A stretch of 64,000 bases of DNA from Verrucomicrobiia bacterium (GTDB lineage: Bacteria > Verrucomicrobiota > Verrucomicrobiia > Palsa-1439). Positions 22,619-46,385 of this stretch are shown piece after piece (position 1 is the stretch's first letter; each line of letters opens with the position of its first letter). The DNA lies in NCBI GenBank assembly GCA_052146795.1, contig JBKQMH010000106.1:390-64389 (forward strand), given 5' to 3'. The notes beneath the pieces were generated by a model that was given only the letters and a program-made list of their open reading frames with translations, did no database searches and had not been told where the DNA came from. Made by a program: the position numbers and the translations under genes.

Positions 22619-24088
22619 ATGAAGACCAGAATTTTTGTACTTAACCCTCTTGTTTGTGGCCTGGCCGCCGCGTTCGTGCTCGGCGCCGTATCCGCTAGTG
22701 CCGCAACGGATCCGTTTGTCCCCTTCCCCAACAATTCCACGCATACCGCCGCCGTCGTGGCGGCGGCCATTGCCAACGTGCCCACGAACGTGGGTGTTGT
22801 TTTCGATGCCAATGGCCAGACCAATGACATCCAGATCTGGAACTTCGGCAGCGGGATCTACACGGGAGTGGTCGACGTTTCCTCGACGCTGCAACGGATC
22901 CGCAACGGCCAATCCGTGGCGAATACCGAATCCGATGACGGCGGCTTCTTCAATTTCAATTCCCCCGAGTTTCCCAATATCCCGCGGATGGGAAACAATT
23001 ATTACATGGAGTTCATGGTCTGGCCGTTTCTGAACCTCGCCGCCGGCACCTACAACACCTCGAATGCGTATGGTTCGATGACGTATCCCGGGGCGATGCG
23101 GCTGCTGATCGGTCTCGGGGGCGAGGTGTATTTCACGGGCGACCACTACGGCGAGGACGGCCCGCAGCAGAACGCCTACTATTTGAACCCATTACCCGGC
23201 CAGGCCTTCGGGAATAGCTGGACCAACGCCGTCAGTGGCAAATGGGAAAATGCGACGAATTGGAACTTCAGCGTGGGCGCGCCATCGGCGGCGCCGTCGA
23301 ACTGCGACCCGGCGGACCTGATTACCAACGCCGGCAACAAGACGGTCACGCTCGATGCGGTCACAGCGTTCCGTAAGACAAACCTGCCGGTAGTCGTCAT
23401 CAACAACCTGGTTCTATCGGCGCCGAGCGGCTCGGTCAACACGGTTGTATTGACCGCCGGCTTCACGAACACGCTGCAGATCGCGTCCAGCTTCTCCCTT
23501 CTCAGCGGGGGTTCGCTCACCGTGGCCGGTGGCTCCATCACGGTGAACAACGGGCTCACAATCGATGGCGGAGCCCTCTTGAGCGGGGGCACCGTAACCG
23601 TGTACAGCAACCTCGTCGTCGGCGATTGTGGGGCGGGCGTGACGGGCACGGTGTCCGTCGCCGGCGGCAGCCTGTACGTCACCAACAGCACGCAGACCGG
23701 CGTGTTGAACGTGCAAAATGGCACGTTCACGATCAGCAGCGGAGTACTCCAGGCCGACAACTTGGTGATCACCAACCCTTGCGCGCAGTTCTTTCACACC
23801 GGCGGAACGCTGATTGTCAGCAACGTGGTTTTGAACCCGAACCTGTTCCAGGTTCTGTCCGTCGCCCCGCAAACCAATGGCATGCTGGTTACGTGGCTGA
23901 TGGGGCCCGGGGCGATCAACGCGCTGCAGGTCACCAGCGGGGATGCCAACGGCAATTACAACACAAACGGTTTCACCGACATTTTCGCGGTGACGAATAA
24001 TCCGAGTCTCGGAACAATCACTAGCTACCTTGATCTCGGCGCGACGAATGGCCCGACGCGGTATTACCGTGCGCGCCTGGGTCTGTAG
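22619..24088 (+). CDS. Secreted protein: RNase Sa/barnase-like domain, beta-rich passenger repeats and putative C-terminal sorting domain
   Basis: Signal peptide; STLQRIRNG...DGGFFN...YYMEF...MRLLIGLGGEVYFTGDHY; Gly/Thr/Asn-rich repeats; ends YLDLGATNGPTRYYRARL. Confidence 0.7.
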   Translation: MKTRIFVLNPLVCGLAAAFVLGAVSASAATDPFVPFPNNSTHTAAVVAAAIANVPTNVGVVFDANGQTNDIQIWNFGSGIYTGVVDVSSTLQRIRNGQSVANTESDDGGFFNFNSPEFPNIPRMGNNYYMEFMVWPFLNLAAGTYNTSNAYGSMTYPGAMRLLIGLGGEVYFTGDHYGEDGPQQNAYYLNPLPGQAFGNSWTNAVSGKWENATNWNFSVGAPSAAPSNCDPADLITNAGNKTVTLDAVTAFRKTNLPVVVINNLVLSAPSGSVNTVVLTAGFTNTLQIASSFSLLSGGSLTVAGGSITVNNGLTIDGGALLSGGTVTVYSNLVVGDCGAGVTGTVSVAGGSLYVTNSTQTGVLNVQNGTFTISSGVLQADNLVITNPCAQFFHTGGTLIVSNVVLNPNLFQVLSVAPQTNGMLVTWLMGPGAINALQVTSGDANGNYNTNGFTDIFAVTNNPSLGTITSYLDLGATNGPTRYYRARLGL

Positions 24089-24134
24089 TCTCTCTCAACG
24101 CGCGCCGGCTGGTTGCTCGGACACGGCGACGAAT

Positions 24135-24602
24135 TCAGGCTTGTTTACTTCGTTGCTGAAGCGCCTTGAGGTACTCCAGTGCCGAGCGTTTACGGGGATT
24201 GGGATCGGCCGCGGCTTCCTTGGCGGAAATCAACGTCGGCAGATCGAGAATAGCCACGTGCTCGCCACCAACGTTCATCAATTGGCGATGTGACGTTGCC
24301 TGTTCGTAAGTCCCGACCCCCATGACCTCGCTGAGGATATCGAGATCGCCATACTTCGTGTTCAGGGCGAAGACCGGCTGCCGCTGGAGCACAGAATCTG
24401 ACAGTGGCTCGTCCCAGCGCGCCCCGATTTCGTGAAGGGCGGCCAGTAATCGCTGACGATTCGCGGGTGTGTCCGCGTAAAGGATGTCGAGGTCGTACGT
24501 CTGCTCCGGGCAACCATACAGCGTGGCGGCGAATCCGCCAATCGTGATGTACTCGACCTTGTGGTGGTTCAGCGCCTCGATGATTTTTCGCGGATCGAAC
24601 AC
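24135..24602 (-). CDS. Nucleotidyltransferase-superfamily protein (minimal NTase type)
   Basis: YITIGGFAATLYG...TYDLDIL, GDLDIL, LISAKEAA. Confidence 0.75.
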   Translation of the reverse strand: MFDPRKIIEALNHHKVEYITIGGFAATLYGCPEQTYDLDILYADTPANRQRLLAALHEIGARWDEPLSDSVLQRQPVFALNTKYGDLDILSEVMGVGTYEQATSHRQLMNVGGEHVAILDLPTLISAKEAAADPNPRKRSALEYLKALQQRSKQA

Positions 24603-24751
24603 AGCAGGCGCTGCTCCTTGGCTTTGCGATCAATCTGGGGCCATTGGCCGCGGGCCTCGACTTCGCGGAGCGCGGCCATCAGGGTTTCGACGCGCTCGTC
24701 GGGCGTCTTGCGGAGGTTCCGCCGAATGGTTTCATCGAGGTGCAGGTCCAT
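24569..24751 (-). CDS. Small partner protein upstream of the NTase (antitoxin-like)
   Basis: MDLHLDETIRRNLRKTPDERVETLMAALREVEARG; overlaps the NTase start. Confidence 0.5.
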   Translation of the reverse strand: MDLHLDETIRRNLRKTPDERVETLMAALREVEARGQWPQIDRKAKEQRLLCSIREKSSRR

Positions 24752-24851
24752 ACTACAAAGTGTACCAGTTTGTGGGCGGAGACACAAGAACCCTGCTGCG
24801 TGACCACCGGGTGTAAGAGTATTGGGCAATGCCTGTTTGACTCCAACAGAA

Positions 24852-25380
24852 CGCAGGCTGAAGCCTGCGGCTACATGGGATGGAACCGGACGGACACGGC
24901 GGCAAGCGGGCTGGCTGCCAGACAAAACGGATGGCTACGGGGTCCGCTGCCCTACAAGGACAGCGGTCGAGCAACCCCGGACCGCGGTCGGCGCCCGCGG
25001 CTACAACGGCAACAGCGCAGACGGCGCTTGGCAAGCACGGCCACAACGGCGCGGCGCGATACCCGCCTGAGGTGGGCAAGCCTGAACGCTCTTCGATGCT
25101 CTAGGGTAAACCCTTCGACGCTGCTCAGGGCAGGCAGGCATCGCGCCCCACAATTCGGAGGGGATCGTTCCTCGCGCAGGAGGTGGTATCGTGTTTTGGA
25201 GTTGACAATCCATCCTAGTATGATATACGGTTGTGCATGAGTTGGTGTTTATCGGTATTGGGGTTGGTCTGAAACACGAAATGCTTGGGTAAGGCAGGAA
25301 ACGACAGAGATGCTTCGATGGATTCGACCCATTCGACGGGTTCGGCAGGCTCACCGCAGGCCCTTCGACAAGCTCGGGGC
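24852..25380. repeat. Mosaic of REP-like palindromes
   Basis: CGCAGGCTGAAGCCTGCG palindrome (24852-24869); CCCTTCGACGCTGCTCAGGGCAGG (25111) and CCCTTCGACAAGCTCGGGGC (25361). Confidence 0.65.
25202..25229 (+). promoter_or_regulatory. Sigma70-like promoter facing the repeat cluster
   Basis: TTGACA-16 nt-TATACG. Confidence 0.45.
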
Positions 25381-25419
25381 GGGCGGGGCATACAGGGGGA
25401 AGAGCCCGAAAGGGAGGAA

Positions 25420-25680
25420 ATTACGAAACGAACCCAATTTTATGCACGGCGGGTTGGCTTTTTGTAATTGGCTTTGGGAAAACGAAGCCAATTGCCGCAT
25501 ACGGCAGGGGCGTCGACGGCTTCGGGAGACCATGGGCTGCGCGAAAACACGCTTTCTGCCAAACGAAGCCAATTATAATGGACAAATATTTGGCTATTGT
25601 GTCGTTGTGGGACAATGAGTTATGGCGATAAGAGGGTTAAATTTGGGTTGGCTTCGTTTTGTCAAAATTGGCTTCGTTCG
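25420..25680. repeat. Cluster of AAACGAACCCAA/AAACGAAGCCAATT repeats in both orientations
   Basis: Direct copies at 25426, 25480, 25561; inverted copies at about 25645-25660 and 25666-25678; perfect 9-bp inverted repeat 25466-25493. Confidence 0.8.
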
Positions 25681-25890
25681 CCCCCGCTCACGAAGGCCTA
25701 CGGCCCGCACGACGTGCGTCCGGTTGCCGCAGACGACAGCGTCGTCTCGAGGACTCGGCTCCGCGGCTGCCCTCGCCGCTCTGCTCGGCTTCGTTTGGGG
25801 GGTGGACGGCCCGATTGTGGGGTCGGACCGCTGGCACATCGGTCAAATGGGCGTAAGTTATACGAGTAGGATCGACGGGTTACGAAGGAC

Positions 25891-27177
25891 ATGACACGAA
25901 CTAGGCAATGGATGGTGGTGGGGCTGTGCGCTTTGATGGCGCTGGGTTGTGGGACGGTCGCCAAGACCCTGGTGATGAACAATCCCAAGGTCGAGAAGAT
26001 ACTGACGCCGCCCAAGCCGGACCACACCATCGAGCACGTGGGTCGGGTGGAGTACGTGGGCGACGCCGATGATCGGATCACCGTGCTGTACGTGACCGGC
26101 ACGCCGTACGAGATGGGGTACGAGCAGGGCCGATTGCTGGCCGATCAGGTGCGCGCCACCATTCGGGACGTGCAGGCGGGGGCCGACAAATTTTTGCCAA
26201 AGGAGTTGCGCAACTCGAAGCTGATCTCGCAGCGTGCCAAGGATGAGATCATCGGGGAACTGCTGCAGCGCGCGTGGGACATGATGGGGCGGTACGCGCC
26301 GAAGGAAGACCTCGAAGAGATGGCGGGTCTGGCGGCGGGCAGCGGTGTGCCGTTGGATCTGATTCACCAGATGCACGCGATTCCCGATGTCGGCGAGTCG
26401 AGTTGCAGCGGGATGGTGGCCAAGGGCAGCGCGACACGGGACGGGCATGTGTACCAGTTGCGCATTCTCGACTATGGCGCGAATTTCAATTTGCAGCGGC
26501 GTCCCCTGATCACGGTGTATCGTCCGACGACGGACAACGCGAACCAGTATGTGACCATCGGCTGGGTCGGGTTCGTCGGCGCGGTCTCGGGCGTCAACGA
26601 GAAAGGCGTGGCGCTGAGCGAGATGGGGTTTGGCAAACCGCCGGGTGGCAAGACGCTCGCGGGCACGCCGATGCCGTTCCTGTTGAAGAACGTGTTGCGC
26701 TACGCCAACTCCGCCGACGAAGCCGCGGCGATCATTCGCGCGGTGCGGCGGACGAATTCGTACGTTTATTTTCTGGGGGACAAGCGCGACGATCCGATTG
26801 GCATGGTCACGTCCGCGCAACGATGTCTGACCTATCACGCCAACGAAAGCGATACGCTGGTCGTGGATGGGGAGACGCTGCCGCAGTTTCACGATGTTGT
26901 GTACGGCGGTCACTACGAGGACAAGCAGGCGCGACTCGTCAAGGAGATGGAGGGCAAGATCGACGTGGGCGCGATCCAGGAGTTGGCGCGGCAAATTGCC
27001 ATGAAGTCGAATTTGCAAACGGTGATTTACGATCTGACGGGCGACAAGATTTGGGTGGCCAACCGCAAAGACAACGTGCGCGCGGCGGACCGGCCGTACG
27101 TGGAATTTTCACTGGCGGACGCGTGGAACAAGTCGGCGCAGGCTGCGGGCGCGGCGCAACTCCGGGCGGCCAATTGA
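25891..27177 (+). CDS. C45-family (Ntn-hydrolase) acyltransferase/peptidase, probable lipoprotein
   Basis: GTPYEMGYEQG, SSCSG nucleophile, QLRILDY, SGVNEKGV; lipobox-like LMALGC. Confidence 0.8.
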   Translation: MTRTRQWMVVGLCALMALGCGTVAKTLVMNNPKVEKILTPPKPDHTIEHVGRVEYVGDADDRITVLYVTGTPYEMGYEQGRLLADQVRATIRDVQAGADKFLPKELRNSKLISQRAKDEIIGELLQRAWDMMGRYAPKEDLEEMAGLAAGSGVPLDLIHQMHAIPDVGESSCSGMVAKGSATRDGHVYQLRILDYGANFNLQRRPLITVYRPTTDNANQYVTIGWVGFVGAVSGVNEKGVALSEMGFGKPPGGKTLAGTPMPFLLKNVLRYANSADEAAAIIRAVRRTNSYVYFLGDKRDDPIGMVTSAQRCLTYHANESDTLVVDGETLPQFHDVVYGGHYEDKQARLVKEMEGKIDVGAIQELARQIAMKSNLQTVIYDLTGDKIWVANRKDNVRAADRPYVEFSLADAWNKSAQAAGAAQLRAAN

Positions 27178-27211
27178 CACGGCGTGACGATTTGATAGGG
27201 TTCACAACGAA

Positions 27212-27715
27212 ATGAAAACATTCCGGGCCAAGGTTTTGATGGTGGTGCTGATGGGGGCGGGTGTTGCGTCCATCGGCTATTCGCAAACGGCGCCGAAGGA
27301 CGTCCTTCCGCAGAACAACGTTCCGCATCCGCCGGTGTCGCCCACGTTGAACGTCCTGACCCCGGACAATGTTCCGATGCCATCGCCCGTGCCGACGGCG
27401 ATTACGCCGCAGGCATCGACACCGGCGGCGCCAATGGTTCCGCAATTGCCAACGCCCGGTGTGGTGGAAACCAACAAACTGCAAGCGCCCGCGAACGGCG
27501 AGCCCGTTGGTTCTGGTCCGAAACAATCGTCGCTCTGGACGCAAACGAACGCGGCGCCATCGTCGGCTTGGGGAAAGACCGCCGTGGCCGGCAGCACATC
27601 GCCATCCGCCGCCAAGCCCGTACCCGATCCGTGGTCGACACCGCCGCCGAACACGCGTTTGTGGGATTCCACCATGCCGCTGGGTTCTTCGGGGACGAAG
27701 ACCGACTGGAAGTAG
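27212..27715 (+). CDS. Pro-rich secreted hypothetical protein
   Basis: Signal peptide MKTFRAKVLMVVLMGAGVASIGYSQ; low complexity. Confidence 0.55.
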   Translation: MKTFRAKVLMVVLMGAGVASIGYSQTAPKDVLPQNNVPHPPVSPTLNVLTPDNVPMPSPVPTAITPQASTPAAPMVPQLPTPGVVETNKLQAPANGEPVGSGPKQSSLWTQTNAAPSSAWGKTAVAGSTSPSAAKPVPDPWSTPPPNTRLWDSTMPLGSSGTKTDWK

Positions 27716-27767
27716 AAGCACGGTCGCCACCGCTGCCGGAGTTTTGGTACACTGCCACGGATTTTAT

Positions 27768-28907
27768 ATGGTTCCGCAATCGTATTACCGCTGCTGGGTG
27801 GAGGTCGATCTCGACGCGCTACGCCACAACGTCTCCGCCATCCGCCGCCGCATCCGGCCGAGCGTGAAACTGATGGCGGTGGTGAAAGCCGATGCCTATG
27901 GTCACGGCCTGGCGCAGGTCGCGAGCACCTTGATGCAATGCGGCGTCGACGCGTTCGCCGTCGCCAATTTATCCGAAGCGTTGCTGCTGCGGCAAATTGG
28001 CGGGACCGGCTGGCCGATTCTGTTGTTCGGTTCGGCGCTGCCATTTGAAGTGGCGAAGATGATCGAACAAAACGTCACGCCCACGATCTCGACGGTCGAG
28101 GAGGCGCAGTTGTTCGAAGAAGAGGCGCGTCAACGTGGCAAGGTTGTGGACCTGCACATCGAGATCGATACCGGCATGGGGCGCGTCGGGTTTTGGCATG
28201 AAGAAGCCATCAAAACCATTTTGCCGATGACGGCGCTGCGGCACGTGCACATCGCGGGATTGTACACGCATTTCCCGTCGGCGGATGAAAATCTCGCCGA
28301 GACGCGGCACGAGTTGGCTTTTTTCCAGAAGGCGGCCCAGAAACTGGCGAGCGAAGGGGTCAAGATTCCCCTGCTCCACACGGCCAACAGCGCGGCGGTA
28401 CTGCGGTTGCCCGAATCTCATCTCACCATGATCAGGCCGGGGCTGCTGCTCTACGGGATTTGCCCGACGAAGGCGCTCGCCGGTGAGTTTCGCCCCGTTC
28501 TTTCGTTCAAGGCGCGGGTGGCGTACGTCAAAGGCGTCGCCGCCGGCCGCACCGTGAGTTATGGCCAGACGTTCAAGGCCAGGAAACCAATGCGGATCGC
28601 CACCGTCACCGCTGGTTATGCTGACGGATTCAGCCGTCATTTGTCCAACAAAGCGGAAGTGCTCGTTGGCGGAAAGCGCTGTCCCGTGGTCGGTCGGGTG
28701 ACGATGGACCAGATCATGGTGGACGTGACGCGGGTGCCCCATGTGCAGTGTGGCGATGAGGTGGTGTTCATCGGTCAACAAGGCGACGCACGCATCACGG
28801 CCAGCGACATGGCGCGTTGGGAGGACACGATCCCGTGGGAAGTGCTTTGTGGCATCACCAAGACCGCGCGTGTCCCCCGCATCTATCGCGGGGTTGCTGC
28901 CGCGTAG
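27768..28907 (+). CDS. alr: Alanine racemase
   Basis: AVVKADAYGHG (PLP lysine), IDTGMGRVG, HTANSAA, VSYG, GRVTMDQ. Confidence 0.96.
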   Translation: MVPQSYYRCWVEVDLDALRHNVSAIRRRIRPSVKLMAVVKADAYGHGLAQVASTLMQCGVDAFAVANLSEALLLRQIGGTGWPILLFGSALPFEVAKMIEQNVTPTISTVEEAQLFEEEARQRGKVVDLHIEIDTGMGRVGFWHEEAIKTILPMTALRHVHIAGLYTHFPSADENLAETRHELAFFQKAAQKLASEGVKIPLLHTANSAAVLRLPESHLTMIRPGLLLYGICPTKALAGEFRPVLSFKARVAYVKGVAAGRTVSYGQTFKARKPMRIATVTAGYADGFSRHLSNKAEVLVGGKRCPVVGRVTMDQIMVDVTRVPHVQCGDEVVFIGQQGDARITASDMARWEDTIPWEVLCGITKTARVPRIYRGVAAA

Positions 28908-28979
28908 GTTTTCTTTGTTGGGGGTAATTTGCCAACGCGCTGCTCCGGGTTTATGTTGGGCAACGAGCAAAGGAGGCAT

Positions 28980-29177
28980 ATGAAACGAACCTCGAATGCC
29001 AAATCAGCGGTCAAGCGATCACCTCGAACCAAGTGCGCGTGCGCGAGCTGCCAGTGCACGGTACCGTTGAGCGGTGGTGTGCGGCGGGATAATCTGGTCT
29101 TCTGCAGCGAAGCCTGCGCTTCGCGGGCTTGTACCGTCGAATCGTGCGCCTGCGAGCACGACCATTGTGCCGCGTGA
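28980..29177 (+). CDS. Prokaryotic metallothionein (SmtA/BmtA-like)
   Basis: KCACASCQCTV...FCSEACA...CTVESCACEHDHC matches the SmtA pattern KCACxxCxC...YCSEAC; AGGAGG RBS. Confidence 0.8.
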   Translation: MKRTSNAKSAVKRSPRTKCACASCQCTVPLSGGVRRDNLVFCSEACASRACTVESCACEHDHCAA

Positions 29178-29215
29178 CGGCCGGCGCGTTCGGCACCGCA
29201 TCCGTCAAATCGCGA

Positions 29216-30022
29216 TCATCGTTTGTGACGAGCGCGTGATCGCTCTTTGTGCTTGGCCGACTCCCAAAGGGCGTCGAGTTCTTCGAGGGTACAATCTTCC
29301 AGGCGGCGGCCGCTGGCGTGGACGGCTTTCTCGATCTGCTGGAACCGCTTGACAAATTTCGTGATGCTGCGGTTCAGGAGTTCCTCCGCTTGCAGTTCCT
29401 CGAACCGCGCCAGATTCACGACCGCAAACAGCAGGTCGCCGACTTCTTCTTCGAATTGCTTGCGGCTCTTCGACGCGAGCGCGCCTTTGAGTTCGCGGAC
29501 TTCTTCCTCGACCTTGGCAATCACGTCATTGACGTGTTTCCAGTCGAATCCGACCCGCGCGACTTTGCGCTGCACCTTGTCAGCTTTCAACAGCGCGGGT
29601 AGGTGTTTCGGCAAATCTTCCAGGTGGACGATGCTGGTGGCGCCTTTCTCGGATTTCTTGATTGCCTCCCATTGCTGGAGCACTTCGGCGCTGTTGCGGG
29701 CCTGCGCCTTGCCGAAGACATGCGGATGGCGATGCACCAGCTTGTCGCTGATGGATCTGGCCACGGCATCGAAATCAAATGTCCCCTCCTCACTGGCCAT
29801 TTGCGCGTGGAAGACAACCTGCAGCAATAGATCACCGAGTTCGTCGCGGAATGCGTCCATCTTTTTTTCATCGAGGGCGTCGATCGCCTCGTAACATTCC
29901 TCGATCAGGTTGTGGCGGATGGACTGGTGGGTTTGCTCGCGGTCCCATGGGCAACCGCCCGGACCGCGCAGTCGCGCCATGATTTTCAGAAGACGGGCGA
30001 TGTTTTTGGTCTGAGTTGGCAT
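29216..30022 (-). CDS. mazG: Nucleoside triphosphate pyrophosphohydrolase MazG
   Basis: GGCPWDREQTH, EECYE, DELGDLLLQVVFHAQMA, EEEVGDLLFAVVNLAR. Confidence 0.95.
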   Translation of the reverse strand: MPTQTKNIARLLKIMARLRGPGGCPWDREQTHQSIRHNLIEECYEAIDALDEKKMDAFRDELGDLLLQVVFHAQMASEEGTFDFDAVARSISDKLVHRHPHVFGKAQARNSAEVLQQWEAIKKSEKGATSIVHLEDLPKHLPALLKADKVQRKVARVGFDWKHVNDVIAKVEEEVRELKGALASKSRKQFEEEVGDLLFAVVNLARFEELQAEELLNRSITKFVKRFQQIEKAVHASGRRLEDCTLEELDALWESAKHKERSRARHKR

Positions 30023-30167
30023 GCCGAGCCCGCTAGAATACGTGCGCCAGGTAGTGATGGCAAAGAAAATTGGGATCGCAATATCAGGTTGAGAAAACCA
30101 ACAGGGCGTTGGCCGGCGGTAGGCGTGCGGTGATACTCCTGGCTTCCGGCTTCATGTACAAAAGAAA

Positions 30168-30199
30168 AGTGAGCAGGGTGGTTAAATACCCTGCTCACT
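30168..30199 (-). terminator. Rho-independent terminator of the 30226-30561 gene
   Basis: Perfect 12-bp inverted repeat AGTGAGCAGGGT/ACCCTGCTCACT followed by a U-rich tract on the minus strand. Confidence 0.8.
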
Positions 30200-30225
30200 G
30201 AATTTGTCGTAGTACCGCTGCGTGA

Positions 30226-30561
30226 TTAAGCGCGTGACCGGCTTCCGCTGGGGAATGCCAATACTTTCTCCTCTTCGTCTGTCAGAGCTGTTCCTCGAAG
30301 TGGCGCGGCTTGTTCCTTTCGGCGTAACTCCCAGAGCCGCTCCAGTTCCGTCTCCAAGGACGCTATCCGATGCGTGCCGACTGTCGGTAGATCGTCCCCA
30401 GCATTGGCCAGTCGACTGCGCAGAAGCTGCAATTCATCAGTCACTTGTGCAATTTTCTCCAGCAAAGTGGGTTCCTTCACGGGACGCACCACCCGCGCTA
30501 GACGTCGCAACGGTGACGACCGACGGGTCTTTTTCATAGTTTTCTGTCGAGCTTTCATCAT
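30226..30561 (-). CDS. Small coiled-coil protein, DUF2630-like
   Basis: LEKIAQVTDELQLLRSR...LETELERLWELRRKEQA; own terminator. Confidence 0.55.
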   Translation of the reverse strand: MMKARQKTMKKTRRSSPLRRLARVVRPVKEPTLLEKIAQVTDELQLLRSRLANAGDDLPTVGTHRIASLETELERLWELRRKEQAAPLRGTALTDEEEKVLAFPSGSRSRA

Positions 30562-30740
30562 TTTGTATTCAATCAGACCCTTGTTTATATCAGTTGTTCA
30601 ATCGAAAACAAGCTATTTTCGGCCATTTTTCGATGAAGTATTATGTAACCATTTGATGACGCTGGTGTTACACGTTACTTCGAATGTGTAAAATAGTGGT
30701 AACCCAGTGCGTAAGAGGGGTTACCACCCACAGAAATGCG

Positions 30741-31238
30741 CTAGGAATTGAGTATGTGGCTCAGCAGTTTTTCGCCATCGAATACGAAATAGCCGCGAAA
30801 CGTCTTCCGCTTCAGCAACAACGGTAACCAGTAGCCGTCGTCCTCCCACATGTCATGGTACGGGATCTTGTCAATATCCGTCCAAATCGGAGTTGCCTCG
30901 TCCGTTTCGCACAGTTCTCCAATACAACCCCCTGCGGCAAAGACCGCAACGTGCAGCTTGTATCCGTCGAGGAATTGAAAAAAGAGTTCGCCAACGTGCT
31001 CCAAATCCGTCGGCGTGACCCCAATTTCTTCCTGAGTCTCGCGAATCGCCGACTCCAGTGCCGTCTCGCCCTTCTCAAGCCTCCCGCCGGGACCGTTGAT
31101 CTTGCCCGCGCCGAGCCCGCGCTTCTTGCGAATCAACAAGATCTGCCCACCCCGTATCACAAAGCAAAGGTTTGCATACTCGGTCGGCTTCCAGGTCGAC
31201 CAGTCGATCTGATTCACATCGACGTCAGCGGCGCTCAT
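30741..31238 (-). CDS. NUDIX hydrolase (MTH1/8-oxo-dGTPase-like)
   Basis: LIRKKRGLGAGKINGPGGRLEKGETALESAIRETQEEIG Nudix box; MWEDD. Confidence 0.9.
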   Translation of the reverse strand: MSAADVDVNQIDWSTWKPTEYANLCFVIRGGQILLIRKKRGLGAGKINGPGGRLEKGETALESAIRETQEEIGVTPTDLEHVGELFFQFLDGYKLHVAVFAAGGCIGELCETDEATPIWTDIDKIPYHDMWEDDGYWLPLLLKRKTFRGYFVFDGEKLLSHILNS

Positions 31239-32281: not shown

Positions 32282-32300
32282 ACGAATGAGGAGATAAATC

Positions 32301-36539: not shown

Positions 36540-36540
36540 G

Positions 36541-37518: not shown

Positions 37519-38229
37519 TCAGTTCTGCGGAACAGCCTGTTGCATCGCTTGGTCAAACGTCGCCGCGCCATTGGGAATCGCGCTGGCGATGAACCCGTTA
37601 CGAAACGCGTCCTGTTGGGCCGGTGATGCATCGACAATATACGACTGCAGGTACGTAACCAGTTGGCTCATGGTCAGCTTGTATTGTTTCATTCCAGCGC
37701 CCCACTGGTCGCCAACCTGATAATACCCCTGTACGTCCTGTGCCGTGTAGGTGGCCGTCTGCGAACTGTCGGCGTCCGATATGACAACCGGCGCATCGTA
37801 CGGGTAAGCCGGCGGGACAGCGTATGTGTCATCCGGCTGGATTTCGTAGTCCCCATACGCCGGACCGCCGTAATACGGGTAGGCTCCATATGGGTAGCAA
37901 TACGGGAACCCGTAGGCATAGACCAGTCCGCCATATCCATACCCGTATCCGTGCCTGTAATAATGGCCGCGTCCATAGCCCCTCCCGTAAACGCCGTGAT
38001 TACCGCCATGGAAACCGCCACCATGCGTGAACCCCCCTCGTCCGCCAAAACTCGAACGAAACGCCGTTCCCCCGTGCCCGGAATACCCGCGGGACACGGA
38101 CGCGCCATGCCCACCGCCGCCTCCTCCTTCACCGCCCCGCCCCTCGCCGCCACCTCTCGTCCCCTGCCCATACACCGAGATTGCAGGCAGGACCAACGCT
38201 AGCAGTACGCCAAGATGCCCTCGTTTCAT
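37519..38229 (-). CDS. Secreted Gly/His/Tyr-rich protein
   Basis: Signal peptide, GGHG/GYGY repeats, YPY-rich stretch, small helical C-domain. Confidence 0.6.
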   Translation of the reverse strand: MKRGHLGVLLALVLPAISVYGQGTRGGGEGRGGEGGGGGGHGASVSRGYSGHGGTAFRSSFGGRGGFTHGGGFHGGNHGVYGRGYGRGHYYRHGYGYGYGGLVYAYGFPYCYPYGAYPYYGGPAYGDYEIQPDDTYAVPPAYPYDAPVVISDADSSQTATYTAQDVQGYYQVGDQWGAGMKQYKLTMSQLVTYLQSYIVDASPAQQDAFRNGFIASAIPNGAATFDQAMQQAVPQN

Positions 38230-38534
38230 ATGTCTCCACCTTCTTTCTCTACCAATTAAGACGCGGCAACCCGCCAGAATGTTTCATAATTCTGCACCGA
38301 GCGAAACGACGTATCGATGGCCCGCCCGCGACACGGCAACGGCCAGAACCTCCTCTTCCCCGCCGGCCACGTCCAATGGCACGCCGGGCGTGTCGCCAGC
38401 GACATGTCCTTCCGTCACAACACCATAAGCGCATGGTGATCCAACCTCGCCGGCGCGCTATCTCGTTGACTTCCCGACGCCCGTGCCGCAACTTCCCTGT
38501 TGTCACGTTCGCACATCATTCGGGGGGCGATTCG

Positions 38535-39434
38535 ATGAGACCGTCGCTGCTGGCGATTGCTGTGTCCGTTACGTTTGTCAGTGCGCAATCCACGTTGCGC
38601 GCCGAGGACTACTTCACGCCAAATCTTCAGGTCGCCCTCGCGAGTGACAGCGCCACCAACACTTCCGTCGAACACCGCGACTTTCTCCTCCCCTATCACG
38701 AAGAACAGTGGCCCAACAAATACCTCGAGTGGCTCTGGAAGGACCCCGCCAATCTCTTCACCCGTCCCGCCTTCTGGGGCGGCTCCCAATGGGCTACCTT
38801 CGGTATCGAAGCGGGTATCACGGGCGCCCTGATGCCGGTCGATCGCTCCTACCGCGATTTCTCCGACGACATCCACAGTAAACCCCTCACCCACGTTCTC
38901 AAGCCCATCGACTTCGTTCTCGGCAATTACCCCGTCGCCCTCATCAGCGGTGGAATGTTCGCGGGCGGTCTCGGGCTCCACAACGAGAAACTCGCCGACT
39001 CGGGCTTCTTGTCCCTCGAATCCGTCGGCTACGCCACCCTCATTGATGTGGGAATCAAGGGCCTCACGGAACGCGAGCGCCCCCGTGATACCCACGATCC
39101 CTACCAATTTCTCGGACCCGGCGGCTCCGCCCATGGCAGTTCGTCGTTCGTCTCGGGCGATGCCATCGCCGCGTTCGCCTTCGCCTCCAGCGTCAGCGAG
39201 GTCTGGCAAACCCCGTGGATCACCTGGCCGTTGTATGCCCTCGCCACTGCCGTGGCCTTCCAACGCACCGAGGCCGATGCCCACTGGCTCAGCGACGTCG
39301 TTGGCGCCGCCTTCCTCGGCCACGCCATCGGCAAGACCATCGTCCACATGCATTATCGCCACGATATCGAAGGCCGGCTCATGCCCTACGTCGCCGACCA
39401 CGTCGTCGGCCTCCAACTTGCCTTCGAGTTCTGA
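38535..39434 (+). CDS. PAP2-family phosphatase, exported
   Basis: KGLTERERP, SSFVSGD, RTEADAHWLSDV; ends AFEF. Confidence 0.85.
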   Translation: MRPSLLAIAVSVTFVSAQSTLRAEDYFTPNLQVALASDSATNTSVEHRDFLLPYHEEQWPNKYLEWLWKDPANLFTRPAFWGGSQWATFGIEAGITGALMPVDRSYRDFSDDIHSKPLTHVLKPIDFVLGNYPVALISGGMFAGGLGLHNEKLADSGFLSLESVGYATLIDVGIKGLTERERPRDTHDPYQFLGPGGSAHGSSSFVSGDAIAAFAFASSVSEVWQTPWITWPLYALATAVAFQRTEADAHWLSDVVGAAFLGHAIGKTIVHMHYRHDIEGRLMPYVADHVVGLQLAFEF

Positions 39435-39487
39435 CCAATCAGTCGGACTCCGGTCTTCGGTCTTCTGTCTTCCCCTCTTGTGGCCTG

Positions 39488-39608
39488 AACTTGGCTTCGT
39501 TTTCATTCGACGCGTGTAAAGAATTCCGACACCCGACTTCTGTAAGTGGTTTATCACACGTCAATTGTAAAAATTCATCCCCCTCCGAAATTTGGGTTCG
39601 TTTGTAAT
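39488..39608 (-). repeat. Second copy of the AAACGAACCCAA...AAACGAAGCCAA repeat pair
   Basis: Minus strand reads ATTACAAACGAACCCAAATTT (39588-39608), then GAAAACGAAGCCAAGTT (39488-39504). Confidence 0.7.
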
Positions 39609-39736
39609 ATTTACTTTTTTTCTAGACCTTCTCTACCCACTACCGGTTGGGGTGATCCTGCCCCGGCGGTGCGCGGCCCTTCTCCCTCCCGTCTTCGGTC
39701 GACCTTTTCAAAGAACATCCCATCTACTACCGAAAC

Positions 39737-39766
39737 ATTGTATATCCTTTTACGATACCACGTCAA
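39737..39766 (-). promoter_or_regulatory. Orphan sigma70-like promoter facing the repeat pair
   Basis: TTGACG-18 nt-TACAAT on the minus strand; no convincing ORF downstream. Confidence 0.55.
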
Positions 39767-39817
39767 GCCCGATTCATTCTCCTGCCGTTCCCCATCGCCC
39801 CCCTCCGCCGCCCCCTC

Positions 39818-40360
39818 TCACTCGCTGCCGCGAAATTGATCCGCCTTGTTCTTGAACAGCACGTTGAACGTCGTCAGCGATCCGTACGACCGCGTGATAT
39901 ATTGCTGCATCTCCACTTTCTCGGCGTCGCTCAACTTTTCGTGGCTGTTGATCTTCTGCTCGAGCACGCGCAGGTTGTTCCGCAACATCACCACCTTGTG
40001 GAAAAACACGTCCAGCGGAATCTCCTTCGCCTGCAAACTCGCATCCGCCGGATGAAGCATCAATCGCCCGCCGTGCCACCGCGCACCGAGTTGTTCCACC
40101 ACTTCTCCCGGTGTTCCCACGCCCAATTCCGTTAACACCGCCCGCGTGGTCTTCTCAATGAATTGCGCCAGCGGCATGTCCTGGCCCCCCACCGAGACGC
40201 GTGCCTCCTCCGCCACCAGGTCGCTTGTCTCCGGCGCGACGGTCCGCATCCCATCGTCAAATCGAATGTCCGCCGTATTCTCGGTGATGGATTTGACCAC
40301 GCCCATCCCGTGCTGCGGATGTCTCACCTTCATCCCGACGTGCAATTCCGAGATTTTCAT
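39818..40360 (-). CDS. Conserved hypothetical protein with N-terminal SH3/Tudor-like domain
   Basis: [17 protein letters not shown]; [36 protein letters not shown]; ATGA-coupled to pgi. Confidence 0.75.
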
Positions 40361-42018
40361 GACTGGCCCGGCCAATCGTGCCCCTTGGTCTTGGAATGGC
40401 GGTACCGACGGATTAATGCGTTGGTCGAACTGTCGTGCTTGAGTGGCGGGTCGCCAATGCTCTGTAGCTCCGGCGTGATCTTCTTCGCCAATACCTTCCC
40501 CAACTCCACCCCCCATTGGTCAAACGAATCGATGTTCCAAATCGCGCCCTGCGTGAACACCACGTGCTCGTACAGCGCCACCAGTTTGCCGAGCGTTTCC
40601 GGGGTCAGTTGCGCCGCCAATATCGTGTTCGACGGCCGATTGCCCTCAAACACGCGGTGCGGCGCCAGCCAATCCGCCGTGCCTTCCGCCTTCACTTCCT
40701 CCGCCGTCTTGCCAAACGCCAGCGCCTCACTCTGTGCGAACAGGTTCGACATCAGCAATTCGTGGTGTTCGCCCGCCGGGTTCAGCGGATAGCAGAACCC
40801 GATGAAGTCGCACGGAATCAGTTTCGTCCCCTGATGGATGAACTGGTAGAACGAATGCTGGCCGTTGGTGCCGGGCTCGCCCCAGAAAATCGGCCCCGTC
40901 TGGTAATCCACCCGCGTTCCGCCCAGCGTGATGTACTTGCCGTTGCTCTCCATCGTCAATTGTTGCAGGTACGCCGGGAACCGCTTCAGATACTGGTCGT
41001 ATGGCAGCACGGCCGCCGTCTGCGCCCCAAAAAAATTGTTGTACCAGACGCCGAGCAGCCCCATCAGCACGGGTAGGTTCTTGTCGAACGGCGTCGTGCG
41101 AAAGTGTTCGTCCATCGCGTGGAACCCGGCCAGCATCGACCGAAAATTCTGCGGTCCGATGGCGATCATCGTCGCCAATCCGATCGCCGAATCCATCGAG
41201 TACCGTCCGCCCACCCAGTCCCAAAAGCCGAACATGTTCGCCGGATCGATCCCGAACTTCGCCGCTTCGTGCACGTTGGTCGAAACGGCCACGAAATGGT
41301 CGGCCACCGCCCGCCGGTTGCGCAATTGGTCCACCACCCATTGTTTGGCGCTCTGCGCATTGGTCATCGTCTCCTGCGTCGTGAACGTCTTGGACGACAC
41401 AATAAACAGCGTCTCCTCGGGGTTGAGGTCGCGCGTCGCCTCGGCAAAGTCGGTTCCGTCCACGTTCGACACGAAACGAAACGTCAACTCGCGCATGCTG
41501 TAATGGCGCAACGCCTCGTATGCCATCACCGGACCGAGGTCCGAGCCGCCGATGCCGATATTGATGACATTGCGGATTCGTTTGCCCGTATACCCCTTCC
41601 ACGCCCCGTTGCGCACGTGGTCGGCAAACTCGGCCATCTTATCCAGAACGGTATGCACTTTCGGAACGACGTTCTCGCCGTCCAGGATGATCGACTGGCC
41701 GCGCGGCGCCCGCAGGGCCACATGCAGGACCGCCCGGTCTTCGGTGATGTTGATCTTTTCGCCCTGGAACATCGCGTCGATCCGCCCGCGCAGGTTGCAC
41801 TCCTCGGTGAGCTTCAACAACAGCTGGATGGTCTCGTCGGTGACGCGGTTCTTCGAGTAATCCAGGTACAGCCCCACGCCCTCGGCGGTCAGTCGCTCGC
41901 CGCGCTTGGGGTCATCCGCGAACAGTTTCCGCAGATGCATGTCTTTGACGCTTTGGTAGTGCGCTTCGAGCGCCTTCCATGCGGGACGCTGTGTCAGGGA
42001 CGTTTTGTTCATGGTCAT
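40357..42018 (-). CDS. pgi: Glucose-6-phosphate isomerase
   Basis: [45 protein letters not shown]. Confidence 0.97.
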
Positions 42019-42245
42019 ATCGACTGCGGCCGGCTCTCAGGCTGTTCCATCCGCAGATTCAGTATAGCACTCCCTCCCCGTTTTTCTCAACTCCCCTTTC
42101 GGCAGTGGGCTGGTTTGAAGATTTTGGGGTTAAATGGCGGGGCCAGCAGGTATCGAGCTTTTGTCGATGAAGCTGGCCATCCAAAGGCCAGAGGGTGCCA
42201 TGCGTGTTCGTTCAAGGATGGCCCAGAAACGCGTTACGTCACGGT

Positions 42246-42603
42246 CTTGGAGCTTCCACCTGTCGGCCAAGCCATCGATTACGCATTGAAGCGCTGGGAG
42301 GCGTTGACGCGGTTCGTGGACGACGGGGCTTTGGAGATCGGCAACAACTTGATCGAAAATGCGATTCGGCCCAGTGCCCTTGGAAAAAAGAACCGGTTGT
42401 TTGTTGGACAGCCGGAGGCGGGAGAACGCGGCGCGGTGATCTATACCCTGCTGGGCAGTTGTCGGCGGCATGGGATCAATCCATTCGATTATTTGAAGGA
42501 TTTGTTCTCGCGCCTGCCAGCGGCCAAGATCACGGAGATCAAGCGGTTCACGCCCTCGCAGTGGGCCAAGTCATGTCAGGCTCAATCGGCGCAAGCCGCG
42601 TAA
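42246..42603 (+). mobile_element. IS66-family transposase (TnpC) C-terminal relic
   Basis: AIDYALKRWEALTRF..DG.LEIGNNLIENAIRP.ALGKKN.LF.G...GERGAVIYTLLGSCRRHGINP..YL; degenerate GNN and NRLF; no start. Confidence 0.85.
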
Positions 42604-42784
42604 CGTGTTTGATTCAGAACAGCCGGACTTCAGATCGAGCACCCACTGGCTGCTTATCAACCGGCTATCGACTGAGAGCCTGCGAAAACAGGGCCGCAGT
42701 CGGGGATGGTTCACCAAGTCGTAAACGTGGCTTCCGTTGTTCGGTTGCCGTTTCATCCCTGCGACTATGAACCCGAATTTGTGG

Positions 42785-45571
42785 TCACTGCCTGAGGTCG
42801 ATGCGATAGAAGCGTGACGGTGCGTTTGTGGCGGCACCAGAGTCCGTATAGTTTGTGACTCCGAAACCGGACATGACGATCGTTGCGAGGTCGAAGAAGT
42901 TGCTGGAATAGCTGCCATCAAGTGCTTGAACGATGTTGGTTCCGGGGTTTCCGTTCCATGCAAGGATCACGTTCTTGCCAGTAAGTGTGATCGAGGTGAT
43001 TGCGAACGGCTGGAGCGAGACGCCAATGCGGTAGAATTTGTTCAGCTGCGTCGCATTCAGATCGGTAATAGTGGCTTGGGCGCCGTTGATCAGCGGGCCG
43101 GCGCAATCCGTAAGCGGCAGCCAGACGCCACTCACCAAATCTGTACAGAACTGCGGGGTGTAGACGCGGCCGGCAAGGACCGGGGTGAACTGGAAGCTGA
43201 ACTGTCCCGGTAGATTCTGGACGCTGGCGGGTTGGATGACAAATATGGACGTGGGATTGGTTGGGTTCAGCCCGGCGGTGTATTTGAAAAGGTTGTTTTG
43301 GCCGGTGCCGTCGGCATCGACGTTCATGAGCGACTGCACGCAATTAGTGCAGTTGAAATACTGCGAGAGCCACGCCTGAAACTGTGACGCCTCGGTGGGG
43401 CTCAAGATGGTGATGTAGCTGGCCCACGTGGCGGTGCTGGATCCACCGAGGCCGCTGACGATCTCCATCACAGTGTAATTGCCCGCAGCGGCGTAGGTGT
43501 GTTGCATACCGGGTGTCGTGGCGTTGGTGGTGGCGCCGTCGCCGAAACTCCAGAACCAGTTGGTGATGTTGCCGGTCGATGCGTCAACAAAAGTCACGGT
43601 CAGCGGAGCCACGCCGCGGACCGGGGCAGCGGAGAACCTGGCCAACGGCGGCGGCAGCAGCACGGTGATGTAGTTGGCCCTCGTGGCGGCGCTGGTGCTG
43701 ACCCCGCCGTAACCACTGACAACCAGCGTTACCGTGTAGGTGCCGGCGGCGTAGGTGTGGGTCACGCCGGTGGCGGTGACGTTGGTCGCGCTGCCGTCCC
43801 CAAAGATCCAGTGCCGATTGGTGATGCCGCCGGTCGAGGTGTCGGTGAAGGTCACGGTCAGCGGGACCACGCCGTTCGTCGGTGAAGCCGTGAAACTGGC
43901 CGTGGGAGGCGGCGGCGGCAAAGTCGAAGTCTCGATGATCCGTGCACCCGCCCAGTCTGCATGATCATTGGTATTCCCCGGCACGCCATTCGATATAATC
44001 AAGTCCAACTGGGACGCGCCACTGATGTCCAAGTCTATCGTCTTGGTTGGCATGCCGCTGGTCATTGTCCCGATGTCGTAAATGCATATCCCGTCAACTG
44101 CGACCTGGAAAACGACAACGCCGCCGTTTGCCTCGTCGTCCAAACCGATGTCGGACTGAAACATCGCGGATACACCCCCGATGTTGTATCTTATGTCGGA
44201 GTAGGCATGACATCCCAGACCCTTGGTGTAAGTTACTCCGTTTATCGTAATCGTAGTCCCATCGCCACCGTCGCATTCGCCGTTGCTCATGTCTCTTTGT
44301 GCATTGCCGAAACCGTTCGTTTGGTAGATCCAGTAGAGGTCGCTTACGTAATTCGTGCCGATGCGCAGTGGCCATAGCGGCGGTGATGGGCGGGACATTG
44401 GCGTGCCGATGATCTTCAGCAGGGCGACTCCGTGCGAGGGAACATTGGTTGAAAAACTGTCGGTAAATGTTCCGACATTGGTGTGTGCCCACAAGTCGCG
44501 CACCGTGGCGTTGCCGGGTTGGAGCGAAATGTCGCTCCAGTTCGCCGTCATGTTGGTACTGACTGCGCTCCTGTTGAAAAGGGCTACCGCCTTGGTTGTC
44601 CCATCCGTACCGACGGGCTTACACCATACTTCCACAGTTCCACCCGTACTGAGAATTGAAGAGACGCGGACGCCCTGCACTCCGTTCGAGTCCTGATCTA
44701 TCGCAATCGCTTCCGCATTGGTCAATATGTTCAGCGTCGTTTGCGATATGCTCCGCAGGTCAGTGCTGACAATCAGCGGCGCCGCCACGATACACCACAT
44801 TGCAAACTGGGACTGGTCCTCCGTGGCCGACATGCTGTCGTTGACATTACCGGCGCTCAACATATCCGGGTCGTTCCAATTGCCGGGGCCGGCGGCGGCG
44901 TACCAAGGGTTGTTCGCATCGAGGTTGCCGATCAGCGTCGACCATGTATTTTGGGAATCGGTGGTTGTACGCCACTGGTTAGCATAGGTCGGCAGCCATG
45001 GGTAGAATACGCAGGTACAAGCATTAAGCACTATTGGTCGTCCACAACCCAACAATGCGTTGCCCATCGCGACGTAATACGGTTCCGTGACACTCGAACC
45101 GTCTATGCAGTACCCGGCAGAATCATCCTTCAGGTAGTCAACTCCCCAAGACGCGAACGTGTTGGCATCGGTGACTTCGTTGCTAAGTGAGCATAATGAG
45201 AATTCATTTGTGTACGAGCCGATACATCTGTAGATACCGAACTTTAATCCATCAGCATGAACATAGTTCGCCAATGATTGTATGCCATCGGGAAAGTTGT
45301 TTGTGTTCACAACGAGAACGCCGTTTGACCGGTAGCCCCAACAGTCGTCCAGGTTGATATACTGATAGCCAGCGGCCTTCATGCCGTTGGTCGCCATCGC
45401 GTCCGCGTTCTGCTTGACGATGGTTTCGTTAACGCCACAATAAAACGCAAGCCAGCCGTTCCAACCCATCGGCGGGGTGAGCGCCAAACCGTTCGTCAAT
45501 GCGGAGGCAGTGAAGTTTGGAACGAGTGCCCACAAAAGAAACACACAGCCCTGAAAAGTACGATGCCCCAT
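42785..45571 (-). CDS. Secreted GH27 alpha-galactosidase with NPCBM, two PKD domains and tandem C-terminal domains
   Basis: LALTPPMGWN, LDDCW, YLKDD, WRTTTD, NDPDML; NPCBM YTKGLGCHA; PKD GVVPLTVTFTDTS...WIFGDG. Confidence 0.9.
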   Translation of the reverse strand: MGHRTFQGCVFLLWALVPNFTASALTNGLALTPPMGWNGWLAFYCGVNETIVKQNADAMATNGMKAAGYQYINLDDCWGYRSNGVLVVNTNNFPDGIQSLANYVHADGLKFGIYRCIGSYTNEFSLCSLSNEVTDANTFASWGVDYLKDDSAGYCIDGSSVTEPYYVAMGNALLGCGRPIVLNACTCVFYPWLPTYANQWRTTTDSQNTWSTLIGNLDANNPWYAAAGPGNWNDPDMLSAGNVNDSMSATEDQSQFAMWCIVAAPLIVSTDLRSISQTTLNILTNAEAIAIDQDSNGVQGVRVSSILSTGGTVEVWCKPVGTDGTTKAVALFNRSAVSTNMTANWSDISLQPGNATVRDLWAHTNVGTFTDSFSTNVPSHGVALLKIIGTPMSRPSPPLWPLRIGTNYVSDLYWIYQTNGFGNAQRDMSNGECDGGDGTTITINGVTYTKGLGCHAYSDIRYNIGGVSAMFQSDIGLDDEANGGVVVFQVAVDGICIYDIGTMTSGMPTKTIDLDISGASQLDLIISNGVPGNTNDHADWAGARIIETSTLPPPPPTASFTASPTNGVVPLTVTFTDTSTGGITNRHWIFGDGSATNVTATGVTHTYAAGTYTVTLVVSGYGGVSTSAATRANYITVLLPPPLARFSAAPVRGVAPLTVTFVDASTGNITNWFWSFGDGATTNATTPGMQHTYAAAGNYTVMEIVSGLGGSSTATWASYITILSPTEASQFQAWLSQYFNCTNCVQSLMNVDADGTGQNNLFKYTAGLNPTNPTSIFVIQPASVQNLPGQFSFQFTPVLAGRVYTPQFCTDLVSGVWLPLTDCAGPLINGAQATITDLNATQLNKFYRIGVSLQPFAITSITLTGKNVILAWNGNPGTNIVQALDGSYSSNFFDLATIVMSGFGVTNYTDSGAATNAPSRFYRIDLRQ

Positions 45572-45930
45572 AGCGGAAACAGTTGTTGACCGACATTTCC
45601 CATATGACATACGCCCCGCAACCATCGCGGGCCGTTCAGATCGGATTCCGTGCTTGCCGCGTCCGGCTGGAAACCCACTAAACTCGCACTGCAATTAAAG
45701 CACAAAGGCTCGCGGTTGTCTATCGTGGAAACCACTAAATTCCGTTGTCTTGTAAAATCCTACCCGCAGGTGGGGGTCAGACTGGGCTGCCTAACCTTAA
45801 GCCGTACGCTCAGGAACTGATCTCAACATACGTGCCGCGTCAGCCGGATACGTCCGGCCGGATATGCCTTGTCGCATTCCTCGTGGTTTTAAGCGCGGTA
45901 TGGTGCCGTGATCTGCCACGTTAAGGATTT

Positions 45931-46385
45931 TCAAATTAAGGCACTACCGGTAAGGGAAGTAAGGAATTGCCGAGCTTTATGAAAGAATCTCAATCCGAAT
46001 CCAATAGTACTGTTGAGTCAGTGATGCCGCGCCAACGTCAGTATAGCTCCACGTTGCGGTTCCCCCGGTGCCGAGGATTGGATTGCCTGCATTAAACCAA
46101 CCGTTTGAGGATGGCAGCGACGGCGAGTCGCTGTAGAGGAGTTGCCCCTGATATCCCCAGCCTGGCACAGTAAGAAAGCTAGTGCTGAGAACGACATTTG
46201 TACCCACCACTTGGATCGAAGGTGTCGTCGGATTGGTAAACACTTCTTGGGCCAACACGATGCCAACCCCGATAAGCACCAGCAAGACGAACACCACTAT
46301 CCGTGTGGGTTTCATACACAACTACCCCTGCACAGCGAAGTATAGAAGGCGAATCAGAATCGGCAAGTCAAATTAAGGCACTACC
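45931..46385. repeat. Perfect 18-bp direct repeat TCAAATTAAGGCACTACC (45931-45948 and 46368-46385)
   Basis: Exact match read directly; flanking bases differ on both sides. Confidence 0.9.
45977..46315 (-). CDS. Small secreted protein: signal peptide plus stand-alone putative sorting domain
   Basis: MKPTRIVVFVLLVLIGVGIVLA; ends WSYTDVGAASLTQQYYWIRIEILS; upstream TTGCCG-16-TATACT. Confidence 0.7.
   Translation of the reverse strand: MKPTRIVVFVLLVLIGVGIVLAQEVFTNPTTPSIQVVGTNVVLSTSFLTVPGWGYQGQLLYSDSPSLPSSNGWFNAGNPILGTGGTATWSYTDVGAASLTQQYYWIRIEILS

Follow-up and report, generated by a model that had tools for sequence, protein, structure and literature searches.

An unnamed Fn3-related module at the C-terminus of exported Verrucomicrobiia proteins, a candidate localisation module

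Introduction

The C-terminal domain (CTD) of type IX secretion system (T9SS) substrates in Bacteroidota (Por_Secre_tail, TIGR04183/PF18962) is a small Ig-like sandwich that closes Sec-exported proteins with diverse passengers; it is restricted to its lineage and occurs dozens of times per genome. The tags of the PEP-CTERM/exosortase system also sit at the end of diverse secreted proteins in many copies per genome, and consist of a short motif, a transmembrane helix and a basic tail. Here we describe a module of about 75-85 aa that occurs in four copies, on three carrier proteins, in a 64-kb stretch of DNA (the window; 64,000 nt of contig JBKQMH010000106.1, assembly GCA_052146795.1) from a Verrucomicrobiia bacterium. 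The module resembles the T9SS CTD or the PEP-CTERM tag in position and distribution and belongs to neither family. Judged by its sequence, it is an unnamed family, probably remotely related to Fn3 (fibronectin type III) domains in truncated form and carried by thousands of exported proteins in this lineage.

The preliminary description of this DNA had drawn an analogy with T9SS CTDs. The analogy holds for size, sandwich fold and terminal position, the module being a sandwich in the range of 70-100 aa at the extreme C-terminus of proteins with signal peptides. It does not extend to kinship, the module being probably a truncated relative of Fn3 and not a relative of the T9SS CTD, nor to the arrangement of copies: the T9SS CTD is a single, strictly terminal domain that is taken off after export, whereas the module is also found internally, in tandem and as a stand-alone domain. 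There is no sequence or profile similarity between the two, the phylum is different, the module has six predicted strands instead of seven, and no T9SS components were seen in the window or in the 20-kb loci analysed below.

Other described systems share parts of this pattern. Like PEP-CTERM tags, the module is a terminal element with diverse secreted passengers and many copies per genome, and it occupies the same C-terminal slot on proteins with an RNase domain or with T5SS/PEP-CTERM repeats; unlike them, it is a folded soluble domain. Fn3 domains of bacterial extracellular enzymes (3MPC, 5G56) are probable remote homologues with the same strand-B Trp, T-x-Y-x-D-x-G turn and YYRV strand F, whereas the module appears to lack the FG loop and strand G and has a fixed ...RL-x-P end. 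Dockerin-cohesin and SLH (S-layer homology) systems also place a shared C-terminal module on diverse exoenzymes, and a Ca-binding D-x-D-G-D-G loop precedes our module in about 25-45% of carriers; however, the module is a beta-sandwich with neither an EF-hand pair nor an SLH fold, and no cohesin-like partner was identified. Finally, in the T2SS (type II secretion) substrates Pel3 and PelI of Pectobacterium and Dickeya, an Fn3-like sandwich carries key determinants for secretion through a secretin-based system (PMC7949064). In Pel3 that domain is N-terminal, and its signal is a composite of loops confined to a single protein, unlike a tag repeated throughout a family; its structural match to the module is not significant.

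A shared module in three secreted proteins

Each of the four copies in the window ends in [FY]YR-x-x-[LV]-x-x-stop. The three carrier genes and their modules are as follows.

22619..24088 (+), gene of a secreted RNase-like protein (from its translation, its AlphaFold2 (AF2) layout and RNase Sa2 as top PDB profile match), with a signal peptide and an RNase Sa-like domain, then a disordered linker, a beta-helix and the C-terminal module
23840..24085 (+), module copy 1, subtype A, aa 423-504 of the open reading frame (ORF), ending TRYYRARLGL before the stop; independent hidden Markov model (HMM) iE 2.2e-26
42785..45571 (-), gene of a secreted GH27 alpha-galactosidase, with Pfam matches to Melibiase_2, Melibiase_C, NPCBM and two PKD domains, followed by a linker and two modules
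43247..43393 (-), GH27 linker W-x3-YF-x-C-x2-C and degenerate TSP3-like loop (DADGTGQNNLFKYTAGLNPTNPTS), read from the sequence, preceding the internal module copy
43007..43246 (-), internal GH27 module copy, subtype B, with the peptide end NKFYRIGVSLQP, also given as TITDLNATQLNKFYRIGVSLQP; independent HMM iE 1.7e-8
42788..43006 (-), terminal GH27 module copy, ending SRFYRIDLRQ before the stop; independent HMM iE 1.2e-23
45977..46315 (-), small-protein gene, 112 aa, signal peptide plus one divergent module only
45980-46228 (-), module copy of the small protein, ending QQYYWIRIEILS before the stop; independent HMM iE 3.3e-4

The C-terminal peptides and the internal GH27 copy quoted in the preliminary description are all present in the window where it had placed them, and the likeness that it saw between the C-termini of three unrelated passengers is real. 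A single BLASTP comparison of the RNase tail with the GH27 tail gives E=2e-6, and an independent HMM (A5) of 28 sequences, none of them from the window, recovers all four copies (2.2e-26 to 3.3e-4) and nothing further in the six-frame translation of the window. Chance similarity of the tails is rejected on these two grounds. Direct reading of the sequence also bears out the Sec-type N-termini: by eye, each of the three starts with a basic n-region, which a hydrophobic h-region and an A-x-A-like site follow.

The RNase-like protein has 489 aa counted from M16 of its 504-aa ORF, and orthologues with 73-89% identity are present in Verrucomicrobiia metagenome-assembled genomes (MAGs). Its AF2 model, run with 68 homologues, comprises an N-terminal globular part (about residues 30-190) and, after a disordered linker (192-233), a beta-helix (233-405) that precedes a six-strand sandwich (411-488). 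The start of the GH27 protein at M42 of its ORF agrees with the gene call on an identical public contig, and its own linker has zero Pfam matches. Subtype B, internal in this protein, forms the terminal domain of the homologues P0033 and P0040, with Pro at the end. The small domain-only protein is a conserved family (P0003, P0007, P0016, P0021, P0032 and P0038), and no GH27 gene adjoins its homologues in other genomes. The PEP-CTERM motif (PEP, hydrophobic helix, basic cluster) is absent from the four window copies, and a regular-expression search of the whole window for it gave no match.

The domain-only homologues show some variation at their ends. P0003, P0016, P0021 and P0038 have a longer tail, with 7-8 aa after YY[RW], and several relatives end in an aromatic residue (...SGF, ...LFF, ...FLF) as opposed to the ...LVP of the main family.

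Terminal position and lineage

A 14-sequence profile searched against 1.84 billion protein cluster representatives matches 3,640 clusters at E<=1e-3, of which 979 reach E<=1e-10. The preliminary description had suggested measuring how often such matches lie at C-termini. Among the 148 best non-query representatives, the copy envelope lies at most 7 aa from the protein end in 145 and exactly at the end in 136. A genome scan with a narrower alignment (A3), whose loci are biased towards subtype A, yielded 363 relatives, and the best 78 loci (1.29 Mb) encode 127 module ORFs in six-frame translation, 125 of them with a stop codon. The last module copy lies at most 3 aa from the stop in 122 of these 125 ORFs (98%). 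Copies are thus overwhelmingly found at the extreme C-terminus. In contrast, only 5 of the 49 canonical Fn3 domains (about 85 aa) encoded by these loci (10%) come within 10 aa of the stop, the other 44 being internal, and in proteins that have both domains the canonical Fn3 is the internal one.

The 78 loci come from peat and soil Verrucomicrobiia MAGs (palsa, SPRUCE, Microflora Danica, SMAG) with one exception, a contig binned as Acidimicrobiales that is probably mis-binned. Three carriers are found within this 64-kb window, and a 234-kb sample of the MAG palsa_1439 encodes at least 22 distinct carriers.

The end of the module is itself constrained. Module copies are only 25-60% identical, yet the length of the terminus is fixed and the last residue conserved: exactly 5 aa follow [FY][YF]R in 111 of 121 distinct tails (92%), and the terminal residue is Pro in 103 of these tails, with LVP the commonest ending, and in 131 of 145 representatives.

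The exceptions to the terminal position are read-through or frameshift variants plus one genuine N-terminal copy. A few carriers (P0102, P0059, L032 10036-13545 and L060 9311-9460) have short unrelated extensions, through loss of the stop codon behind ...RLVP or a frameshift in the last strand, and probably represent pseudogenes or errors of assembly. In L058 2696-3808 (-), the module stands directly behind the signal peptide, ahead of an unrelated domain, so that a C-terminal place is not obligatory for the fold.

Carriers and their passengers

Using a crude heuristic for Sec signals, we found a Sec-like start in 86 of 112 complete carriers, compared with 238 of 738 control ORFs. The N-termini of the carriers resemble signal peptidase I substrates (...AHAQ/YTANFQTN...). 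Pfam searches of 71 carriers detected GH2, GH16, GH28, pectate lyase, phosphoesterase, pro-kumamolisin (sedolisin) and Endonuclease_NS domains, as well as papain-like peptidase, malectin, lectin-like, Ig and TIG domains. The NCBIfam 'T5SS/PEP-CTERM-associated repeat' (TIGR04393) is present in 25 of the 71, and the choice-of-anchor repeats GloVer and CoaZ also occur in carriers.

The module itself is covered by no model in Pfam-A (2025) or NCBIfam 20 (2026), tandem-array proteins included, nor does it correspond there to any sorting or carbohydrate-binding family already characterised. None of the three outcomes that the preliminary description had named as refuting its idea (mostly internal matches, carriers without signal peptides, a match to a known family) was observed. 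No description of the motif or of a Verrucomicrobia C-terminal sorting domain was found in the literature.

Upstream of the module, about 25-45% of carriers have a linker cassette, W-x3-YFGC-x2-C together with D-x-D-G-D-G-x-x-N-x-x-E-[YF]. It matches TSP3_bac in 17 of 71 carriers and positions 92-158 of NF042425 (Amuc_1099_fam, a family of 'pilus-like system protein') in 31 of 71; the latter match covers the linker only, the module lying outside it. The two Cys residues suggest a disulfide or a metal site. The cassette also matches MtsD, with relatives for example at L038 aa 487-551 and P0026 aa 13-49.

Interchange with PEP-CTERM

Which element ends a given passenger can be followed in the 90 proteins that share the RNase-like N-terminal domain of the window protein, a set recruited with the full-length protein. 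The module is at the end of 80 of them and PEP-CTERM at the end of four. Module-ended architectures comprise RNase plus module (about 280 aa), RNase plus beta-helix plus module (about 490 aa), and RNase plus a long helix, TSP3 and module (811 aa). The PEP-CTERM-ended homologues are P0352, P0339, P0345 (Tepidisphaeraceae, a family of Planctomycetota) and P0348, which have a dockerin-like segment followed by PEP-CTERM. No other observation argues as strongly for the module's place in a sorting or anchoring slot as this 'choice of anchor' pattern, read from domain architectures.

Fold and relation to Fn3

AF2 predicts the domain alone as a six-strand beta-sandwich (pLDDT 87.7), and the same six strands are found in the whole-protein model. 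Foldseek searches of the PDB with the domain and with the whole protein gave no significant match, only generic Ig/Fn3 and beta-helix folds; the best TM-score is with the Fn3 of pectate lyase Pel3 (4u49, TMq 0.61, E=0.15, not significant). Profile searches of the PDB were more informative: 3MPC, an Fn3-like protein of Clostridium thermocellum, came up with E=4e-5, and 5G56, the Fn3 of CtXyl5A, with E=0.0017. An hhalign comparison with the canonical Fn3 domains of the same proteins gave E=7.3e-5, with a probability of only 62%, and with Pfam fn3 the module stays below threshold, without a match.

In both alignments the last strand of the module, R-Y-Y-R-V-R-L, pairs with Fn3 strand F, Y-Y-Y-R-V-R-A. 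The module ends where strand F ends, leaving 18-30 Fn3 residues (FG loop and strand G) unmatched, and the seven-strand A-B-C-C'-E-F-G topology of Fn3 is replaced by six strands in the two AF2 predictions. The module is therefore best described, on alignment and modelling, as a putative truncated, G-less Fn3 derivative of six strands. Tandem arrays with a period of about 75 aa (P0045, P0060, P0082 and P0098) indicate that the six-strand unit is autonomous.

Proposed role and alternative explanations

We favour a role of the module as a common localisation (sorting or anchoring) module acting after Sec, a reading that has good indirect support and that we hold to be about as likely as not. It is favoured because of the terminal position, the fixed terminus, the Sec signals, the presence in a genome of dozens of carriers whose passengers are unrelated, the restriction to a lineage and the interchange with PEP-CTERM; it was by such a pattern that earlier C-terminal modules for sorting, anchoring or assembly were recognised. 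The module, usually ending ...R[YF]YR[VIA]RL-x-Pro-COOH, sits at the extreme C-terminus of many Sec-exported proteins in peat and soil Verrucomicrobiia and would pass the folded protein on to a single common partner, which would move it across the outer membrane or hold it on the cell surface or matrix. It would thus fill the slot taken elsewhere by PEP-CTERM, autotransporter barrels or T9SS CTDs, and serve glycosidases, lyases, nucleases, peptidases, phosphoesterases and adhesin-like beta-helices. We infer both that the module determines localisation and which kind of partner would read it; the leading options are a secretin/T2SS-like route and non-covalent surface retention.

The preliminary description had gone further and proposed a terminal sorting domain for an outer-membrane translocon. 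The sorting part gains from the PEP-CTERM interchange and from the T5SS/PEP-CTERM and choice-of-anchor repeats in carriers, while no machinery was found and the translocon part is pure conjecture. In a full version of that idea, the module would tag the substrates of an undescribed pathway for outer-membrane export or surface display in soil and peat Verrucomicrobiia, analogous in function to T9SS/CTD or exosortase/PEP-CTERM and independently evolved from a truncated Fn3; this is tentative and, as it stands, unlikely. A dedicated receptor would then read ...RLxP-COOH, possibly through a secretin-based system or by donor-strand completion of strand G.

Several observations weigh against a localisation role. 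When the neighbours of the 78 loci were clustered, no recurrent machinery candidate emerged bar one secretin cluster. Tandem arrays, the internal GH27 copy and the conserved 112-aa protein made of a signal peptide and a module exist; a cleavable export tag would predict neither the arrays nor the domain-only protein, and both are no less in keeping with a role in anchoring, assembly or structure. The conserved residues (strand-B W, T-x-Y-x-D-x-G and YYRV) are mostly those of the shared Fn3 core and therefore give no sign of a binding surface. The window's own termini (GL, RQ and LS) lack the terminal Pro and are of a minority type, and the statistics on terminal position rest mainly on subtype A, so that divergent internal copies may be under-detected. 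The same genomes also retain ordinary PEP-CTERM proteins (19 ORFs across the 1.29 Mb), which makes the two systems parallel ones and the module no replacement.

The main rival takes up several of these points. It holds that the module is a generic extracellular Fn3-like domain (a spacer, stabiliser or adhesive element) spread by domain shuffling at the 3' ends of genes, with no sorting role and with its terminal position a historical or structural accident. The probable remote homology to the Fn3 of clostridial glycosidases (3MPC and 5G56) and to local Fn3 domains is what it would expect, as are tandem and internal copies, a domain-only protein and conservation mostly at core Fn3 positions. 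However, canonical Fn3 domains of the same loci are mostly internal where the module is terminal, a terminus of fixed length with a conserved last residue has persisted despite low identity, the passengers range far beyond carbohydrate-active enzymes, and homologous passengers exchange the module for PEP-CTERM. We consider this explanation a realistic, if somewhat unlikely, one. Alternatively, the module could bind a ligand, as a carbohydrate-binding module (CBM) or matrix-binding domain would, and tether enzymes either to a substrate outside the cell or to exopolysaccharide or lipopolysaccharide that the cell itself makes. Many carriers are indeed polysaccharide-degrading enzymes, beta-sandwiches at enzyme C-termini are often CBMs, and a basic last strand with a preceding Ca-binding TSP3-like loop would suit an anionic polymer. 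This is nevertheless improbable given that no CBM family model covers the module and that RNases, a DNA/RNA endonuclease, peptidases, phosphoesterases and beta-helix proteins have no common substrate; if the ligand were the cell's own envelope, the explanation would merge with the anchoring form of a localisation role. CBM membership in the strict sense is rejected, as no CBM model matches and the carriers are not restricted to carbohydrate-active enzymes.

Two further explanations start from the fold. The module could be an incomplete Ig-like domain whose G strand is donated in trans by a surface partner or subunit, which would anchor or polymerise the carriers, the small protein being a subunit or cap. 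The end of the domain at strand F relative to Fn3, the six predicted strands, a tandem period too short for a seventh strand and the secreted domain-only protein would all fit; yet AF2, given no partner, confidently models a closed sandwich, neither a donor strand nor an usher-like gene came to light, and this entirely speculative scheme seems very improbable. Still harder to maintain is the idea that the module is a divergent true T9SS CTD exported by a T9SS. Size, Ig-like sandwich, extreme C-terminal position, signal peptides and diverse passengers are all similar, but Por_Secre_tail/TIGR04183 matches neither the three window proteins at E<=1 nor any of the 71 carriers, and no T9SS CTD structure is found among the PDB profile matches at E<=10 or the top Foldseek matches. 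Tandem and internal copies do not fit either, and the hosts are Verrucomicrobiia, in which T9SS is not known. With PF18962, TIGR04183 and TIGR04131 all unmatched, membership in the T9SS CTD families is rejected.

Verrucomicrobiia are abundant polymer degraders of peat and soil, and to our knowledge it is essentially unknown how their exoenzymes cross the outer membrane or stay on it. A recognisable C-terminal module would provide an in-silico marker for the exoproteome of uncultured Verrucomicrobiia, and a handle on export or anchoring machinery through phylogenetic profiling or pull-down. The family is worth adding to Pfam or NCBIfam; if it is only a structural Fn3 variant, the result is a useful but ordinary annotation.

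Gene neighbourhoods

The families seen around the 78 loci comprise histidine kinases, response regulators, S8 peptidases, TPR proteins and PilM. In L023 (13891-20096), a PilM-like gene, two unknown genes and a gene for a TPR-STN-Secretin protein of 900 aa form a cluster some 3.6 kb away from a carrier gene. The cluster recurs in four syntenic loci of different MAGs (L023, L002, L034 and L050), where an S8 peptidase with a canonical C-terminal Fn3 sits between it and the module gene. It may be a lead to a machinery or mere synteny. A second lead, likewise not an established pointer to a machinery, is the likeness of the linker upstream of the module to one segment of a protein family of the Akkermansia secretin/pilus-like cluster.

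Small canonical PEP-CTERM ORFs often directly adjoin module genes (L003 4642-5427, L017 7365-7808, L025 1969-2211 and L058 727-2563).

The RNase-like domain

The N-terminal domain of the first carrier (22715-23161, +) belongs to a large secreted family with at least 90 homologues, many of them only about 280 aa long (domain plus module). A single-sequence search of the PDB was not significant, and a profile of eight homologues gave a marginal result, with RNase Sa2 (1py3) as top match (E=0.0085). The match is collinear over the catalytic YYxEF and GxxRhhxGxxGExYFTGDHY motifs, which appear in the window copy as YYMEF and GAMRLLIGLGGEVYFTGDHY. Some database homologues are annotated as ribonuclease, and a Pfam search with the domain gave no match. 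The 'RNase' label is thus plausible, if weakly supported, and the domain may act as a secreted nuclease in competition or in the scavenging of nutrients.

Other features of the window

The rest of the window is ordinary chromosome, with genes for phosphoglucose isomerase, alanine racemase, MazG, a response regulator and a fused solute-binding protein and permease, and it contains no secretion apparatus. The fusion (17109-19649, -) has 846 aa and joins an SBP_bac_1 solute-binding protein to the ABC permease BPD_transp_1; it is kept near the RNase-like gene in related MAGs (L004 1765-4647). At 14679-15337 (-), two small overlapping ORFs (135 aa and 84 aa), judged by their sequence alone, look like a toxin of the PIN type paired with an antitoxin of the Phd/YefM type.

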